From sequence record NC_014662.1: a stretch of DNA of 64,000 nt. One strand, given 5' to 3'. The notes beneath the pieces were generated by a model. That model worked only from the letters and a program-made list of their open reading frames with translations. It ran no database searches and had not been told where the DNA came from. Position 1 is the stretch's first letter. Every line of letters starts with the position of its first letter. This document shows positions 2,966 through 6,717 of this stretch, in pieces. The position numbers were made by a program, and so were the translations under genes. This DNA is from Enterobacter phage CC31.

Positions 2966-3302
2966 TTTTACCTCGGCATTCCGTAATGAATTCTTCTGAT
3001 TCTCTGATTATTCTATTATGAAGAACTTTAGCATTCTGTTCAGCTAAGCGTTTATTTTCTGGTCGCATCACCCACCAAATAGCAATTTCTTGTGATTTTC
3101 CGTGAGACCAAAGTAGAACTGGAATAGAAAGAAACATTGATACTACAACCCAAATTGGAGCATATACTCCGTCATTAAGTATTAAAGCAGGAACAAAAAT
3201 TAAAAGCACCGCCACTGAACTAAAAGCCAAAAATATTATCATATGTAAAAATTCTGCTTTTGCTGCAAGCTCTCTTAATTCACTTTTTGGTTGATACCCC
3301 AT
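2949..3302 (-). CDS. Small membrane protein, paralog 3
   Basis: 117 aa; two hydrophobic helices; C-terminal EEFITECRGKN. Confidence 0.55.
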   Translation of the reverse strand: MGYQPKSELRELAAKAEFLHMIIFLAFSSVAVLLIFVPALILNDGVYAPIWVVVSMFLSIPVLLWSHGKSQEIAIWWVMRPENKRLAEQNAKVLHNRIIRESEEFITECRGKNEIQS

Positions 3303-3304
3303 GA

Positions 3305-3679
3305 TTATTTCCTCGCTTTACGACAGTCGTTAATGAAGCATTCAAACCGTTCAGCTTTGCTGAGCTTTGATATTATTCTATTTCTTCGCATGCCAATTAA
3401 AATTTGTGCAATAAAATTAACAAATTCACCAATCAGCATAACAATGATACCAAACATTCCCCAACCAAAGCATGTGAATGCAGCCATTGCTCCAGCAGAG
3501 TCAGCTCTTTCTTCTTTTGGAAGATTTGTGATATCAGACCAACCCCAAAATACAATAATTCCGTATAGTGTCAATGCAACGCACCAGCAGAGCTTTTCAT
3601 TTCTGGTCAAAATATATCTGACTTTGGTTGAAAGAGAATCCGTTTTAGCAATTTTAGCTTTAAGTTCAGTTGAATTCAT
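3305..3679 (-). CDS. Small membrane protein, paralog 4
   Basis: 124 aa; CWCVALTLYGIIVFWGW and second helix; C-terminal FECFINDCRKARK. Confidence 0.55.
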   Translation of the reverse strand: MNSTELKAKIAKTDSLSTKVRYILTRNEKLCWCVALTLYGIIVFWGWSDITNLPKEERADSAGAMAAFTCFGWGMFGIIVMLIGEFVNFIAQILIGMRRNRIISKLSKAERFECFINDCRKARK

Positions 3680-3712
3680 TTTATTTTCCTCATAGGGCCC
3701 GAAGGCCCTTTA

Positions 3713-4630
3713 TCATTTGAACGGACGAATCATATCAAAGTTTTGTTTAAAGCGTTTGACATAATCTGTCTTTCCAAGTTTCTTATGCATTGCAACTATC
3801 TTATGGTAGTTTTCCCATGCATATTCACGAAACCAGCCAGATGTAATGCTAGTACAAACTTTTTCCAAAGCGTACATAAATGAACCCGTAGGGTCTGGGT
3901 TGAAATTATTTGGAATTTGATGGCGTTCTAAAGCAAGTACACAAGTTTCTTCATATACACCTGCAAGCTTAAGTTCTTCAGGAAGAGAATCGAACTTCTC
4001 TTTTGAAGTCATTACTTCAGAGCCATCTTTCATGTAGAAAGTATAAGCAGGACGACCAGCTAAAGCCACTGCTTCATGAATTGAATCGTGGTCATAGATG
4101 TAAAAATCATCTTTAAAGAAAGAATCTTTATCTACATCCAGATTAGGATGAGAATATGCTAATGTTTCTTTCTGGCGCAGTTCAGAAATCTTTTTCAGTT
4201 TACTGTCTAAAACAATTCCTTTATTACGCAAGAAACGAATATGATGCATAGTCTTTTGAAAGAAACGAGTGTTCTTCTTGAAACGATGAGACATCTTAAT
4301 TGCTAAGCACATCTCAGGAGTTGCCCAATACATCTGTGAAAGCGCATCATAGCACCCATTAAATACTGCGTAGTGAGCAAGCAGTTCAGATGAACTCTCG
4401 TCGTTATATTCAAAAATGTATGCTTCAAAATAGGTCTCACGACCATTATGCATGCATTTAAAGGCTTGTACATTAGGAGATTGAACTTCGACCTCTGTAC
4501 CATTCATACGGTTTTTGAAATGGAGCCATTCGCCCGGAGACGCGATGAAGTCCCAATCAGAATTCTTAACATCACTGTACTCAATGAGTCCATGGTGATG
4601 TAGAGCTCTAGAACCAATAACCAGCAACAT
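3713..4630 (-). CDS. Hypothetical protein, 305 aa
   Basis: Long ORF; N-terminal VIGSRALHHHG...SDWD loosely resembles a nucleotidyltransferase motif but spacing is non-canonical; C-terminal NFDMIRPFK tail. Confidence 0.5.
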   Translation of the reverse strand: MLLVIGSRALHHHGLIEYSDVKNSDWDFIASPGEWLHFKNRMNGTEVEVQSPNVQAFKCMHNGRETYFEAYIFEYNDESSSELLAHYAVFNGCYDALSQMYWATPEMCLAIKMSHRFKKNTRFFQKTMHHIRFLRNKGIVLDSKLKKISELRQKETLAYSHPNLDVDKDSFFKDDFYIYDHDSIHEAVALAGRPAYTFYMKDGSEVMTSKEKFDSLPEELKLAGVYEETCVLALERHQIPNNFNPDPTGSFMYALEKVCTSITSGWFREYAWENYHKIVAMHKKLGKTDYVKRFKQNFDMIRPFK

Positions 4631-4659
4631 AATATTTTCCTCTTTAGAATGTAGAACTA

Positions 4660-5001
4660 CTATAACACACTTGACTGATGTTGTAAACGGTTCTTTCTAC
4701 ACATTCTGATGAAGTTTTCAATAGGCTCTTCTGGTCTATTGGCTGGATAGCATTTCTTCCAGTTCCACCCTCCCAGCAAGTCAAAGATTTGGTCAGGAAG
4801 AGAATCCCATGGATGTTCTCTTTCGCGGAGTTGAAGCACAATATCACCGGCTGCTTCTCTAATTCCAGTATCAAGTTTTCCATTACAAATCACGACATCC
4901 ATGAGTACTGCAAGACAACAACTATCATGGCTTCCGTATTTGTTCGGATAGTAGAAATAATGGTCAATAATGTAGCAGCAATTACGGTCTAAACCTTTCA
5001 T
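4660..5001 (-). CDS. Hypothetical Cys-rich protein
   Basis: Start chosen at MKGLDRN (ATG 5001..4999 after AGGA); C-terminal ENFIRMCRKNR tail shared with downstream genes. Confidence 0.45.
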   Translation of the reverse strand: MKGLDRNCCYIIDHYFYYPNKYGSHDSCCLAVLMDVVICNGKLDTGIREAAGDIVLQLREREHPWDSLPDQIFDLLGGWNWKKCYPANRPEEPIENFIRMCRKNRLQHQSSVL

Positions 5002-5064
5002 AGTGTTCCTCCAGTGATTCTGGGGAAACTTTTCAGTTTCCCCATATATTACCATTAACAGCTG

Positions 5065-5137
5065 CTAGTGTACCTGGACTCGAACCAGGGAATCGTAGAA
5101 TCAAAATCTACTGCCTTACCAACTTGGCTATACCCCA
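5065..5137 (-). tRNA. tRNA-Gln (UUG), no encoded CCA, acceptor mismatch
   Basis: Manual fold: anticodon arm GTAGA-TTTTGAT-TCTAC, T-arm CCTGG-TTCGAGT-CCAGG; body close to remembered E. coli tRNA-Gln. Confidence 0.7.
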
Positions 5138-5143
5138 ACTGTT

Positions 5144-5220
5144 TGGAGGCGGGTGATGGACTCGAACCATCGCGTAACGGGATATGAACCCGTCATTCTA
5201 CCAACTGAAGTTAACCCGCA
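5144..5220 (-). tRNA. tRNA-Met/Ile2 (CAU)
   Basis: Anticodon arm ACGGG-TTCATAT-CCCGT, T-arm GATGG-TTCGAGT-CCATC, encoded CCA; position 1:72 unpaired. Confidence 0.65.
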
Positions 5221-5230
5221 CTTATCCGGA

Positions 5231-5318
5231 TTCCTGAAGTACAACGGCTGCTTTATGTAGAACTCACCTATTGTGAGGGAACAAAATCACTGGTCCTGGC
5301 ATTAATTATGGACCACCA
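5231..5318 (-). ncRNA. Candidate structured small RNA within tRNA island (not a tRNA)
   Basis: Outer 9-bp stem ttcctgaag/cttcaggaa enclosing two hairpins (GGTCC..GGACC and CTCAC..GTGAG); no T-loop motif. Confidence 0.35.
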
Positions 5319-5340
5319 TCTTCAGGAACTGCCTCGTATT

Positions 5341-5416
5341 TGGCGGACCTAACGGGATTCGAACCCGTGACTCTCACGTGACAGGCGAGTATTTTCACCG
5401 CTGAAACTATAGGTCC
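5341..5416 (-). tRNA. tRNA-Asp (GUC)
   Basis: Perfect cloverleaf: acceptor GGACCTA/TAGGTCC, anticodon arm CTCGC-CTGTCAC-GTGAG, T-arm ACGGG-TTCGAAT-CCCGT, CCA encoded. Confidence 0.8.
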
Positions 5417-5658
5417 AAATTATCTTTCGTGATTATGTGAATCCCTCAGGTTTTCCGGAAAACCGAATAGGCGACAAAAGCTCTCATATACCCGTGCACA
5501 GATATAATCTTTGTTAACTAGTGTCTGAATCAGTATAATCCGAAAGATAACTTTCGGCGCCGTATTTAATTTGAGATATGTAGTTATCGTTGAGGGAACT
5601 CATATTCAGGGATTAACATGCCGACGACTTTGTCAGAACGTCTTCCAACTTCTATATT

Positions 5659-5743
5659 TGGCGGGTCGTGCAGGTATCGAACCTGCCTAGTCATTTCTGA
5701 CACGGATTAACAGTCCGCCGCTTACCCTCTCAGCCAACGACCC
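5659..5743 (-). tRNA. Type-II (long variable arm) tRNA with Asn anticodon GUU
   Basis: 85 nt; acceptor GGGTCGT/ACGACCC, 3-bp D-stem, anticodon arm GCGGA-CTGTTAA-TCCGT, 15-nt variable hairpin GTCA-GAAA-TGAC, T-arm GCAGG-TTCGATA-CCTGC, G73, CCA. Confidence 0.6.
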
Positions 5744-5748
5744 AAATT

Positions 5749-5823
5749 TGGTTCTCCGTAAGAGAATTGAACTCTTCTTTCCGACGTGAAAGGCCGGCGT
5801 CCTAACCGATAGACGAACGGAGA
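5749..5823 (-). tRNA. tRNA-Glu (UUC)
   Basis: Acceptor TCTCCGT/ACGGAGA, anticodon arm CCGGC-CTTTCAC-GTCGG, T-arm AAGAG-TTCAATT-CTCTT, CCA encoded. Confidence 0.7.
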
Positions 5824-5824
5824 T

Positions 5825-5902
5825 TGGTAGGACGTGAGGGAGTTGAACCCATCGACATTCCGATTAAAAGTCGGATGCTCTAACCAACTGAGCTAACGTC
5901 CT
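5825..5902 (-). tRNA. tRNA-Lys (UUU), weak T-stem
   Basis: Acceptor AGGACGT/ACGTCCT, D-arm GCTC-AGTTGGTTA-GAGC, anticodon arm TCCGA-CTTTTAA-TCGGA; T-stem only 3 bp. Confidence 0.65.
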
Positions 5903-5940
5903 GTAGATATTTATAATAACAAAAATATCTTTAAGCAAAT

Positions 5941-6016
5941 TGGTGGGAATAACTGGACTCGAACCAGTGACCTAACGATTATCGGTCGTTTGCTCTACCA
6001 ACTGAGCTATATTCCC
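5941..6016 (-). tRNA. tRNA-Ile (GAU), C at position 33
   Basis: Acceptor GGGAATA/TATTCCC, D-arm GCTC-AGTTGGTA-GAGC, anticodon arm AACGA-CCGATAA-TCGTT, T-arm CACTG-GTTCGAG-TCCAG, CCA. Confidence 0.7.
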
Positions 6017-6022
6017 TGAATT

Positions 6023-6110
6023 TGGTGGGGAGTGATGGAGTCGAACCACCCGAGTCGCAATGACAACAGATTTACAGTCTGCACCGCTACCTCTACGGAA
6101 TTAACTCCCC
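6023..6110 (-). tRNA. tRNA-Tyr (GUA), type II
   Basis: 88 nt; acceptor GGGGAGT/ACTCCCC; anticodon arm GCAGA-CTGTAAA-TCTGT as in remembered E. coli tRNA-Tyr; long variable arm; CCA. Confidence 0.8.
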
Positions 6111-6475: not shown

Positions 6476-6701
6476 AATGTTCTCTCGCAGTGTTTTGGTG
6501 AATCAACGATAATTCATCGAAGATTGACTTCATTGCATTTTTCACAAAAATTTTTTCAGAAGGCTCCATCGACGTATTGTTGATGATTCTCGCCATTCGT
6601 TCTTTAAGCTTCTTTTTCCGATTCCGGACCGTCTCCTTGGAAGCGGTCCTCATGTGAGCAAGATTAGTCATCATGTTCCGTCGATAGATTAATAATAACA
6701 A
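6462..6701 (-). CDS. Hypothetical basic protein
   Basis: 79 aa ORF, Lys/Arg-rich. Confidence 0.45.
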   Translation of the reverse strand: MLLLIYRRNMMTNLAHMRTASKETVRNRKKKLKERMARIINNTSMEPSEKIFVKNAMKSIFDELSLIHQNTAREHYEHQ

Positions 6702-6717
6702 GTAGCTCTTTAAGCAT

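Follow-up and report, generated by a model that had tools for sequence, protein, structure and literature searches.

Downstream of its genes 57A, 57B and ipI, phage T4 carries a cluster of eight transfer RNAs (tRNAs) and two small stable RNAs, rnaC and rnaD. At the same position and with the same strand logic, Enterobacter phage CC31 carries an island of eight tRNA genes, which we analyze here in a 64,000-nucleotide (nt) stretch of sequence record NC_014662.1 (this whole stretch is referred to as the window); the island occupies positions 5065-6110, and 57A-like, 57B-like and ipI-like genes lie upstream of it as in T4. In both phages the tRNAs are tightly packed and accompanied by co-transcribed small stable RNAs, with an rnaD homolog in CC31, and both regions are dispensable and prone to deletion. 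However, the two tRNA sets have only Gln(UUG) in common: T4 has readers of rare codons that CC31 lost, and the rnaC homolog, unlike that of T4, lies in a block missing from CC31 (rnaC-like sequence is present in the related locus L028). The original prediction, made from the letters of this DNA without database searches, had pointed to this difference, and the T4 set that it gave (Gln, Leu, Gly, Pro, Ser, Thr, Ile, Arg) was correct. Phage T5, whose anti-defense tRNAs have been tested functionally, shares with CC31 the Lys(UUU), Asn(GUU) and Tyr(GUA) isoacceptors, its Tyr being a close relative, and the acceptor stem of the CC31 CAU tRNA is that of T5 tRNA-fMet; on the CC31 side this comparison is one of genes. 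In T5, Lys and Asn are altered at positions 39-41, the site of the nuclease AriB, whereas CC31 Lys is altered only at 41 (G) and CC31 Asn not at all. Closest of all are the clusters of the Karamvirus phages PG7, CW742, Pet-CM3-4 and KaAlpha, which have the same eight genes, order and spacers at 90-95% identity but, unlike CC31, 11 further tRNAs and an intact Gln gene, some also with other alleles or inserted open reading frames (ORFs). We consider it fairly likely that the CC31 island, taken as a whole, is a deletion remnant with seven maintained, odd tRNAs that supply the NAN and AUN codons and plausibly help to counter tRNA-cutting nucleases.

As a gene set, the island is already known: it is annotated publicly, and the 2010 description of CC31 (GU323318; 165,540 bp; isolated on E. 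coli B) counted 8 tRNA genes and no homing endonucleases (PMC2993671). We searched the whole window with Infernal against Rfam RF00005 (gathering score 29 bits) and with ARAGORN. Infernal returned eight tRNAs, each matching the full model (1-71) at 39.1-74 bits; they lie within 5065-6110 on the minus strand, and the rest of the 64 kb gave no RF00005 match above the gathering score. ARAGORN returned seven, leaving out Tyr even at a lowered threshold (Table 1). The count, the strand and all eight anticodons (GUA, GAU, UUU, UUC, GUU, GUC, CAU and UUG) thus came out as the original prediction had read them. Its enterobacterial host was likewise borne out, the island residing in a T4-type phage of enterobacteria. 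The description as an eight-gene island holds for the gene set; the island is, however, not self-contained, but is the remnant of a larger cluster, with ~360 nt of non-tRNA sequence that includes conserved structured RNAs.

The evidence for this comes from the relatives. The region is 88-95% identical to those of Enterobacter, Klebsiella and Cronobacter phages of the genus Karamvirus (Straboviridae, Tevenvirinae), CW742 being the closest. In CW742, PG7, Pet-CM3-4 and KaAlpha, the eight genes stand in the CC31 order (Tyr, Ile, Lys, Glu, Asn, Asp, CAU, Gln) and are followed beyond Gln by His, a homing endonuclease gene, and then Ser, Trp, Gly, Pro and Phe, the cluster ending in an Ile2-type CAU tRNA, Cys, Arg, Leu and Thr with small ORFs between them. 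This intact, ancestral-type cluster of ~19 tRNAs is found in at least 28 sequenced relatives, compared with which CC31 lacks 11 tRNAs, the homing endonuclease gene and ~20 small ORFs. Window positions 3000-5074 correspond to CW742 112956-115030, and window positions from 5064 onward to CW742 from 123304, which leaves a gap of ~8.3 kb relative to CW742 and PG7 and of ~7.4 kb relative to KaAlpha. In a three-way alignment, homology switches exactly at the pentanucleotide GGTAC, one copy of which corresponds to positions 64-68 of tRNA-Gln and the other of which is located close to where a small ORF ends. Upstream of the switch, the window tracks the CW742 Gln gene (...GUCCAGGUAC), and downstream of it the last five codons and the 3' flank of that small CW742 ORF (ACUAGCAGCUGUUAA...). 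No other record in the searched public phage collection spans this junction; an IMG/VR locus (L020) that is 100% identical to window 3139-5886 has the same junction. The polarity of the event is clear, since a truncated Gln cannot be the ancestor of the intact Gln of every relative read. By alignment, the interval is thus the promoter-proximal remnant of a ~19-tRNA cluster, shortened by a deletion of ~8.3 kb. Comparable events have been reported in T4-like Serratia phages, which evade ToxIN abortive infection via spontaneous deletions of 6.5-10 kb between short direct repeats; 13-19 ORFs and 4-13 tRNA genes are lost in these events, and the borders are frequently inside tRNA genes (PMC5449768).

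The state of the Gln gene follows from the same event. CC31 Gln is native up to C68, and because the deletion exchanged positions 69-76 for the 3' end of an unrelated ORF, the gene has no encoded CCA, ending in ...G73-CAGC, and carries a G4·A69 mismatch in its acceptor stem, together with a G2·U71 wobble. By chance, the foreign stretch restores C70, A72, G73 and C74, but not A69, U71, A75 and G76. In every relative read the gene is intact and ends in ...GGUACCCCAGCCA. The missing CCA and the mismatched acceptor pair had both been seen in the original prediction; they are real, and they are a deletion scar rather than a designed feature. Infernal gives 64.4 bits to the intact gene of CW742 and 55.9 bits to that of CC31, and the minimum free energy goes from −25.4 to −16.0 kcal/mol (9.4 lost), the cloverleaf still being the minimum-energy fold. 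G2:C71 is an identity element for glutaminyl-tRNA synthetase, and impaired Gln function is therefore to be expected from its loss; a total loss of function is not certain, because T4 matures CCA-less tRNAs with host enzymes. Judged from its sequence, the scarred Gln is probably impaired, and we are inclined, by a modest margin of belief, to regard this gene alone as a pseudogene. As far as we could find, this account of the Gln defect and of the low tRNA count of CC31 is new, its interest being local. It is of use in that the genus has CC31 as its founding member, whose "8 tRNAs" have been quoted as a natural complement.

Class II architecture, in which the variable region forms a long arm (V-arm), is normally thought to be confined to Leu, Ser, Tyr and Sec tRNAs, a rule that a class II Asn kept by selection would break. 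The tRNA-Asn(GUU) of CC31, which the original prediction had correctly described as a type II tRNA with an Asn anticodon, has a variable region of 15 nt with a 4-bp stem (GUCA/UGAC) and a GAAA loop, a D-arm of class II type (U8, G9, a 3-bp stem and G13·A22), the discriminator G73 and the anticodon loop CUGUUAA. It therefore has the class II architecture without belonging to the class II isoacceptors. Among 12 distinct sequences of the family, 99.6% of the cells of the class II cloverleaf are paired, compared with 31-47% in control structures slid by 1-3 columns. Both-sided changes occur at nine pairs, including three of the four pairs of the V-arm, which is found as GUCA/UGAC, GUCG/CGAC, AUCC/GGAU and GUUC/GAAC. 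Covariation of this hairpin extends over T4-like phages, T5-like phages and bacterial tRNA arrays. The body of the CC31 tRNA is a mosaic, with positions 26-44 identical to E. coli asnT and with the acceptor stem and T-arm of E. coli lysT, and this Lys-like part matches the report that a phage Asn-GTT tRNA scores best as Lys in tRNAscan isotype models (PMC12482277).

The long-arm Asn was found by BLAST in 633 phage records, and also in 14 IMG/VR contigs; among the phage records are Karamvirus, T4-like Klebsiella phages, Bragavirus, and the T5-like Epseptimavirus and Novosibvirus. T5 itself does not contribute a homolog, its tRNA-Asn being class I and unrelated. We also scanned 100,044 bacterial and archaeal species, one genome each, for the anticodon arm of this Asn with a long variable region after it. 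The scan returned 20 loci, of which ~11 are genuine long-arm Asn(GUU) tRNAs; none of the 20 lies in Enterobacteriaceae, and BLAST of the CC31 Asn against 5,426 E. coli genomes gave nothing at E<1. Most of the ~11 bacterial loci sit in dense arrays with 8-29 tRNAs per contig, in Actinobacteria, Bacteroidota and Proteobacteria, and the array Asn tRNAs have Asn-type acceptors (UCC...GGAGCCA) and arms that are mostly capped by GNRA. A class II Asn is thus kept in T4-like and T5-like phages and in arrays of several bacterial phyla, and is absent from the enterobacterial chromosomes covered. Long-arm versions of class I tRNAs are not confined to Asn: CW742 has a long-arm Cys(GCA) of 85 nt (L002 4914-4998) in the block lost by CC31, and two arrays in metagenome-assembled genomes contain long-arm Lys(UUU), Glu(UUC) and Ile(UAU) of 90, 89 and 93 nt (L041) and Gln(CUG) of 85 nt (L050). 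In the literature, our access to which was incomplete, we found no description of a long-arm phage tRNA-Asn or, more widely, of class II-like versions of class I tRNAs in mobile clusters, so that the long-arm Asn family appears to be undescribed.

Which amino acid such a tRNA would carry can be approached through its identity elements. The E. coli identity set for asparaginyl-tRNA synthetase (AsnRS) is G34, U35, U36 and G73, and all four are present in CC31 Asn. Identity for seryl-tRNA synthetase (SerRS) involves a long V-arm of Ser-type length (≥5 bp), G73, G2:C71 and C11:G24; CC31 Asn has G73, G2:C71, C11:G24 and G9, with the V-arm stem of the family being only 3-4 bp long and nearer to Tyr and Leu arms. 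SerRS has been described to use G73 and the V-arm (PMC5389517). The nearest prior art to the family is formed by the bacterial allo-tRNAs (PMC5389517) and by eukaryotic V-arm tRNAs with non-Leu/Ser anticodons, the latter known to us through that paper's account of Hamashima 2016. Like CC31 Asn, the allo-tRNAs combine a long V-arm with an anticodon of class I type and occur in phage or mobile clusters, and the eukaryotic tRNAs, as cited there, show the same combination. The allo-tRNAs have 8/4 or 9/3 acceptor/T-stem arrangements and long V-arms, whereas CC31 Asn is 7/5 with a short, Tyr/Leu-type V-arm of 3-4 bp and, unlike them, keeps the full AsnRS anticodon set and G73. We regard it as quite improbable that CC31 Asn has a dual or altered identity, as a substrate of SerRS (or, less likely, tyrosyl-tRNA synthetase, TyrRS) beside or instead of AsnRS, or that it serves mainly as a nuclease decoy or inhibitor rather than as a decoder. 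If charging by SerRS or TyrRS were true, infected cells would insert a second amino acid at AAY codons, and the same reasoning, whether on altered identity or on decoys, would hold for the long-arm Cys, Lys, Glu, Gln and Ile tRNAs of other mobile arrays.

The remaining genes differ in how far they depart from bacterial norms. U33, an encoded CCA and a fully paired 7-bp acceptor stem are found together in Tyr, Lys, Glu, Asn and Asp, of which Tyr, Lys and Asn are odd elsewhere (an insertion, a bulged T-stem and the class II body, respectively); Ile, Gln and CAU depart from this canonical set. Aligned one by one with the tRNA genes of E. coli K-12, the island tRNAs are 65-78% identical to their counterparts, and in six of the eight the anticodon loop is that of E. 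coli. A BLAST search of E. coli with the complete island was uninformative, yielding weak multi-tRNA matches and nothing else. The earlier statement that several bodies are close to E. coli tRNAs is therefore only moderately right in terms of identity; the Asn body is the Lys/Asn mosaic described above.

As first noted from the sequence, Ile has C at position 33, in the loop CCGAUAA. Few positions of tRNA vary as little as position 33, yet C33 is present in eight of 10 distinct Ile(GAU) sequences of T4-like loci, U33 being found in T5 and Stubb, and it is combined with five kinds of anticodon stem (AACGA, GCCGC, CUCGA, GUCGC and ACCGC). C33 is therefore under selection, because it is fixed while the adjoining stem covaries. 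The Tyr gene is class II, as is normal for bacteria, and its anticodon loop CUGUAAA gives GUA in the Infernal alignment. After position 9, three nucleotides (AUU) are inserted ahead of position 10 (UA-AUU-CCGU), a feature that, like U1·C72 with U73 in the CAU tRNA and U1:A72 with A73 in Glu, was absent from the original prediction. Tyr is identical across nine Karamvirus loci; in variants from two IMG/VR contigs (L033, L021), the insertion is kept and the V-arm changes are compensatory. In T5 tRNA-Tyr, which is annotated as convertible to an effective amber suppressor, the insertion at this point is 2 nt long, and the V-arm and T-arm are those of CC31 Tyr.

The CAU tRNA had been labeled Met or Ile2; the anticodon is confirmed, and Ile2 can be ruled out in favor of an initiator-like tRNA. 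Ile2 tRNAs have a GGCCC... acceptor and a GCGACUCAUAAUCGC arm, as in ileX, and CC31 CAU has neither; its 66% identity to ileX is no better than that to unrelated tRNAs, and a separate GGCCCU... CAU tRNA of the ileX family exists in the relatives, deleted from CC31. In the ARAGORN register, the CC31 gene has a U1·C72 mismatch, U73 and CCA. A 1:72 mismatch (U·C or U·U) is present in all nine distinct members of this "UGCG..." family, to which the annotated initiator tRNA-fMet of T5 belongs; the E. coli initiator shows C1·A72 here. The anticodon arm ACGGG-UUCAUAU-CCCGU contains the three G:C pairs G29-31:C39-41, which the T5 member lacks, and acceptor positions 2-6 match E. coli metZ. The CC31 tRNA is without A11:U24 (it has U11:A24 or C11·A24, depending on register) and without A73, and its loop reads UUCAUAU where E. 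coli has CUCAUAA. It is, from these features, initiator-like rather than a proven initiator.

For Lys, the original prediction of a 3-bp T-stem agrees with the ARAGORN drawing of three G:C pairs and two non-pairs, and disagrees with Infernal, which gives 5 bp with one bulged U (GA-u-GGG/CCCUC). Since the CC31 allele is invariant in seven loci, the bulged T-stem is beyond the reach of covariation; a second Karamvirus Lys allele has a canonical T-stem. Glu has U1:A72, C2:G71 and A73 where E. coli tRNA-Glu has G1:C72, U2:A71 and G73, keeps a Glu-type D-arm (U11:A24, U13·G22) and a 4-nt variable loop, and is identical throughout the Karamvirus loci read. For Asp, two alleles circulate in the genus.

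We then considered what the retained tRNAs might do. They read UAY, AUY, AAR, GAR, AAY, GAY, AUG and CAR, and, with His (which follows Gln in the relatives), the kept set contains all seven NAN-box isoacceptors, in addition to Ile(GAU) and the initiator-like tRNA. In the 61 ORFs of the window, the codons of the retained tRNAs amount to 416 per 1000. The comparison of codon usage with the host that had been proposed earlier gave a divided answer: codons of the kept tRNAs occur at 0.85-1.5 times the E. coli frequency, but the strongest enrichment falls on AGA, UCA, ACA, CCA and GGA (2.1-3.1 times), which were served by deleted tRNAs. Thus, rare-codon compensation suits the lost half of the cluster better than the kept half. 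The island would supply tRNAs for NAN and AUN codons (~40% of phage codons), topping up or replacing host tRNAs during infection.

Replacement is the more telling term in view of the tRNA-cutting defenses. Colicin E5 cuts Tyr, His, Asn and Asp tRNAs, and VapC cuts the initiator (discussed in PMC10264068). The E. coli tRNAs Lys(UUU), Thr(UGU) and Asn(GUU) are substrates of AriB, the PARIS nuclease, which cleaves them at 40|41, and T5 tRNA-Lys, tRNA-Thr and tRNA-Asn jointly neutralize PARIS (PMC12409363). PtuAB of retron-Eco7 depletes Tyr, PrrC cuts Lys, and the tRNA-Tyr of T5, SP15 and the Klebsiella phage KpP_HS106 rescues infection from retron-Eco7 in a promoter-dependent manner (PMC11555353). 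At least one enterobacterial toxin, a CdiA protein, cuts tRNA-Ile(GAU) between C32 and U33 (PMC11724271). In our view, the island is likely, though this is unproven, to be selected to a large part for replacing host tRNAs that come under nuclease attack, with plain supplementation as the fallback. It is also likely, as far as the primary structures can indicate, that some of the structural variants make the phage copies poor nuclease substrates; candidate evasion features would be the Asn V-arm, Ile C33, U32/U38 of the initiator-like tRNA and Lys G41. In E. coli Lys, the AriB site is U36AAUC|A41; CC31 Lys has U39 and G41 and thus differs from the PARIS-resistant T5-type substitutions U39A and A41C, C41 being found in the second Karamvirus Lys allele and in Roth68. 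The host Asn is a proven PARIS target that is cut in the anticodon stem beside the exit of the extra arm, and a long-arm Asn with the exact cut site of the host poses the question of whether the extra arm alone is protective. Together with Ile C33, a second candidate resistance mutation, the Asn arm is a lead on how phage tRNAs act against tRNA-targeting immunity.

Several observations weigh against this reading of the island. The identity of six of the eight anticodon loops with those of E. coli limits evasion by loop mutation to at most Ile and CAU, and most members could act only through abundance, of which the promoter-dependent rescue from retron-Eco7 is an example. Asn retains the exact AriB site sequence, so that any resistance would have to come from the V-arm, which is conjecture. 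As a published hint against resistance, the T5 relative Bas34, which has its own Asn(GUU), still needed T5 tRNA-Asn against PARIS; this would bear on the arm only if the Bas34 Asn were of the long-arm form. CC31 is viable without 11 tRNAs, and its growth on the laboratory host thus does not depend on any of those lost. A scan for sigma-70 promoters and terminators remained at chance level.

An alternative is the classical view of phage tRNAs (review PMC10264068), in which the island would purely tune codon usage in an AT-rich phage (39.9% GC) and its structural oddities would be neutral drift. Codons for Tyr, Lys, Asn, Asp and Glu are indeed used 1.2-1.5 times as often in the window ORFs as in E. 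coli, and the eight tRNAs read ~40% of the codons; the enrichment is nevertheless modest, Gln and Met codons fall under the host frequency, and the most enriched codons are those whose tRNAs CC31 has lost. Besides, E. coli has several gene copies of most of these isoacceptors, with five lys genes in one locus. Drift, for its part, leaves unexplained why C33 is found with five stems and why the V-arm hairpin is kept by compensatory changes across phage families, and we therefore think pure tuning unlikely, if still the strongest of the competing accounts.

That the odd members (Tyr, Asn, Lys, Ile, CAU and Gln) are decaying pseudogenes seems improbable to us. The notion draws on the omission of Tyr by ARAGORN, on its label "tRNA-Pseudo-GTA" in Pet-CM3-4 and its lack of annotation in KaAlpha, on the true truncation of Gln, and on the Lys allele, whose invariance puts the bulged T-stem beyond a covariation check. 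However, all eight genes score above the Rfam gathering threshold, and the Tyr sequence, 100% identical in nine genomes, belongs to a family that includes the functional T5 tRNA-Tyr, the "pseudo" label reflecting predictor limits; only Gln has lost sequence, and from a specific cause. The odd features of Asn, Ile, Tyr and CAU are kept across genomes, and in the Asn, Ile and CAU families compensatory changes surround them. Because of this conservation, we read the seven non-Gln genes as maintained and presumably working tRNAs. The outcome also bears on the original prediction, which stands insofar as the predictors returned the same anticodons and the odd members are conserved, and which is weakened insofar as Tyr was missed by one program and called "pseudo" in one record. 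Finally, the 8.3-kb gap and the hybrid Gln could in principle stem from assembly or cloning, given that the junction occurs in one public genome only and sits at a short repeat, where assemblers can misjoin. We attach very little probability to such an artifact: the CC31 genome is ~6-9 kb shorter than those of its relatives (165.5 kb vs 171-175 kb), its published description has exactly 8 tRNAs and lacks homing endonucleases (PMC2993671), the endonuclease of the relatives lying in the missing block, and spontaneous events of this kind are documented in related phages (PMC5449768).

Beyond the tRNAs, three structured RNAs are conserved in the spacers of the island. For the first 105 nt of the Asn-Asp spacer we built a covariance model, trained on Karamvirus and Roth68 spacers only, without T4. 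In T4, this model gave a full-length match at L054 1552-1674(−), where rnaD is annotated at 1554-1672, with 23.7 bits and an E-value of 0.014 that is approximate owing to a shortened calibration. The two share a hairpin and the blocks AAGUCGUCGG, UCCCUG and ACGGCGC, and the CC31 segment is thus homologous to T4 rnaD, the "species 2" stable RNA. For the whole Asn-Asp spacer (242 nt; seven sequences), RNAalifold proposes 81 pairs, 19 of them with compensatory double changes, and the fold has a z-score of −2.68 against shuffles. In the spacer between Asp and CAU, a 12-bp closing stem shows a C:G to U:A swap, the inner hairpins covary, and the z-score is −1.85. The motif GUUCCCUCA is present both in this RNA and in the second part of the Asn-Asp spacer, neither of which has a match in Rfam, T4 rnaC or the seven T5 stable RNAs. 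Local alignments of the spacers with T4 rnaC and the seven T5 stable RNAs likewise gave nothing above shuffles, the exception being rnaD against the Asn-Asp spacer. We rejected a 52-amino-acid coding sequence, annotated in the Asn-Asp spacer of CW742, as a reading of this spacer, since the window does not keep the ORF and the covariation is that of an RNA. In L028 (7816-7911), a 96-nt "tRNA-Phe" called by ARAGORN is a homolog of T4 rnaC (the tRNA-like species 1 RNA) and sits in the part of the cluster that was deleted from CC31.

Two near-identical minus-strand motifs, in the Ile-Lys spacer and upstream of the island, read TGCTTAAAGA...TTGTTATTAT and resemble the MotA-box consensus of T4 middle promoters. 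The pattern TGCTTNA-N11-13-TANNNT occurs 9 times in the window, compared with 3.2 expected, and none of 100 shuffles reached 9, which is suggestive of MotA-type motifs acting as promoters. The island is probably transcribed together with the upstream genes and from MotA-type middle promoters. As in T4, RNase P and 3' processing enzymes of the host would then cut the transcript, the expected products being seven working tRNAs, perhaps a weak eighth, and the stable RNAs.

Table 1. Features of the CC31 tRNA island and its surroundings (positions in the window).
Feature	Position	Strand	Basis or location
Deletion junction, 5-nt microhomology GGTAC	5070..5074	-	Three-way alignment
tRNA-Gln(UUG), native only up to position 68	5064..5137	-	Infernal 55.9 bits, ARAGORN
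Initiator-like tRNA-Met(CAU), 77 nt	5144..5220	-	Infernal 44.1 bits, ARAGORN
Conserved structured spacer RNA, 120 nt (120-161 nt in relatives)	5221..5340	-	Covariation, fold z-score
tRNA-Asp(GUC)	5341..5416	-	Infernal 59.9 bits, ARAGORN
Conserved structured spacer RNA, ~138 nt, ~19-bp closing stem	5417..5553	-	RNAalifold, fold z-score
rnaD homolog	5554..5658	-	Covariance model, first 105 nt of Asn-Asp spacer
tRNA-Asn(GUU), class II body, 85 nt	5659..5743	-	Infernal 49.8 bits, ARAGORN
tRNA-Glu(UUC)	5749..5823	-	Infernal 55.2 bits, ARAGORN
tRNA-Lys(UUU)	5825..5902	-	Infernal 62.8 bits, ARAGORN
MotA-type middle-promoter-like motif (TGCTTAA, 12 nt, TATTAT)	5913..5937	-	Ile-Lys spacer
tRNA-Ile(GAU), C33	5941..6016	-	Infernal 74 bits, ARAGORN
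tRNA-Tyr(GUA), class II, 88 nt including CCA	6023..6110	-	Infernal 39.1 bits
Near-identical middle-promoter-like motif	6692-6716	-	Upstream of island

Further variation was seen among the relatives. CW742 has ~490 bp inserted between Lys and Ile (L001 3843-4336), KMB20 has an ORF of 154 amino acids in place of the Asp-CAU spacer (L006 574-1038), and alternative Lys, Asp and Gln alleles are present among the relatives; the cluster evolves through cassette exchange. Window positions 5020-5045 (minus strand) form a perfect 8-bp hairpin, GGGGAAAC-UGAAAA-GUUUCCCC, which has no U-tract and is kept in CW742; it follows closely on the deletion junction and precedes the ribosome-binding site of the next ORF.

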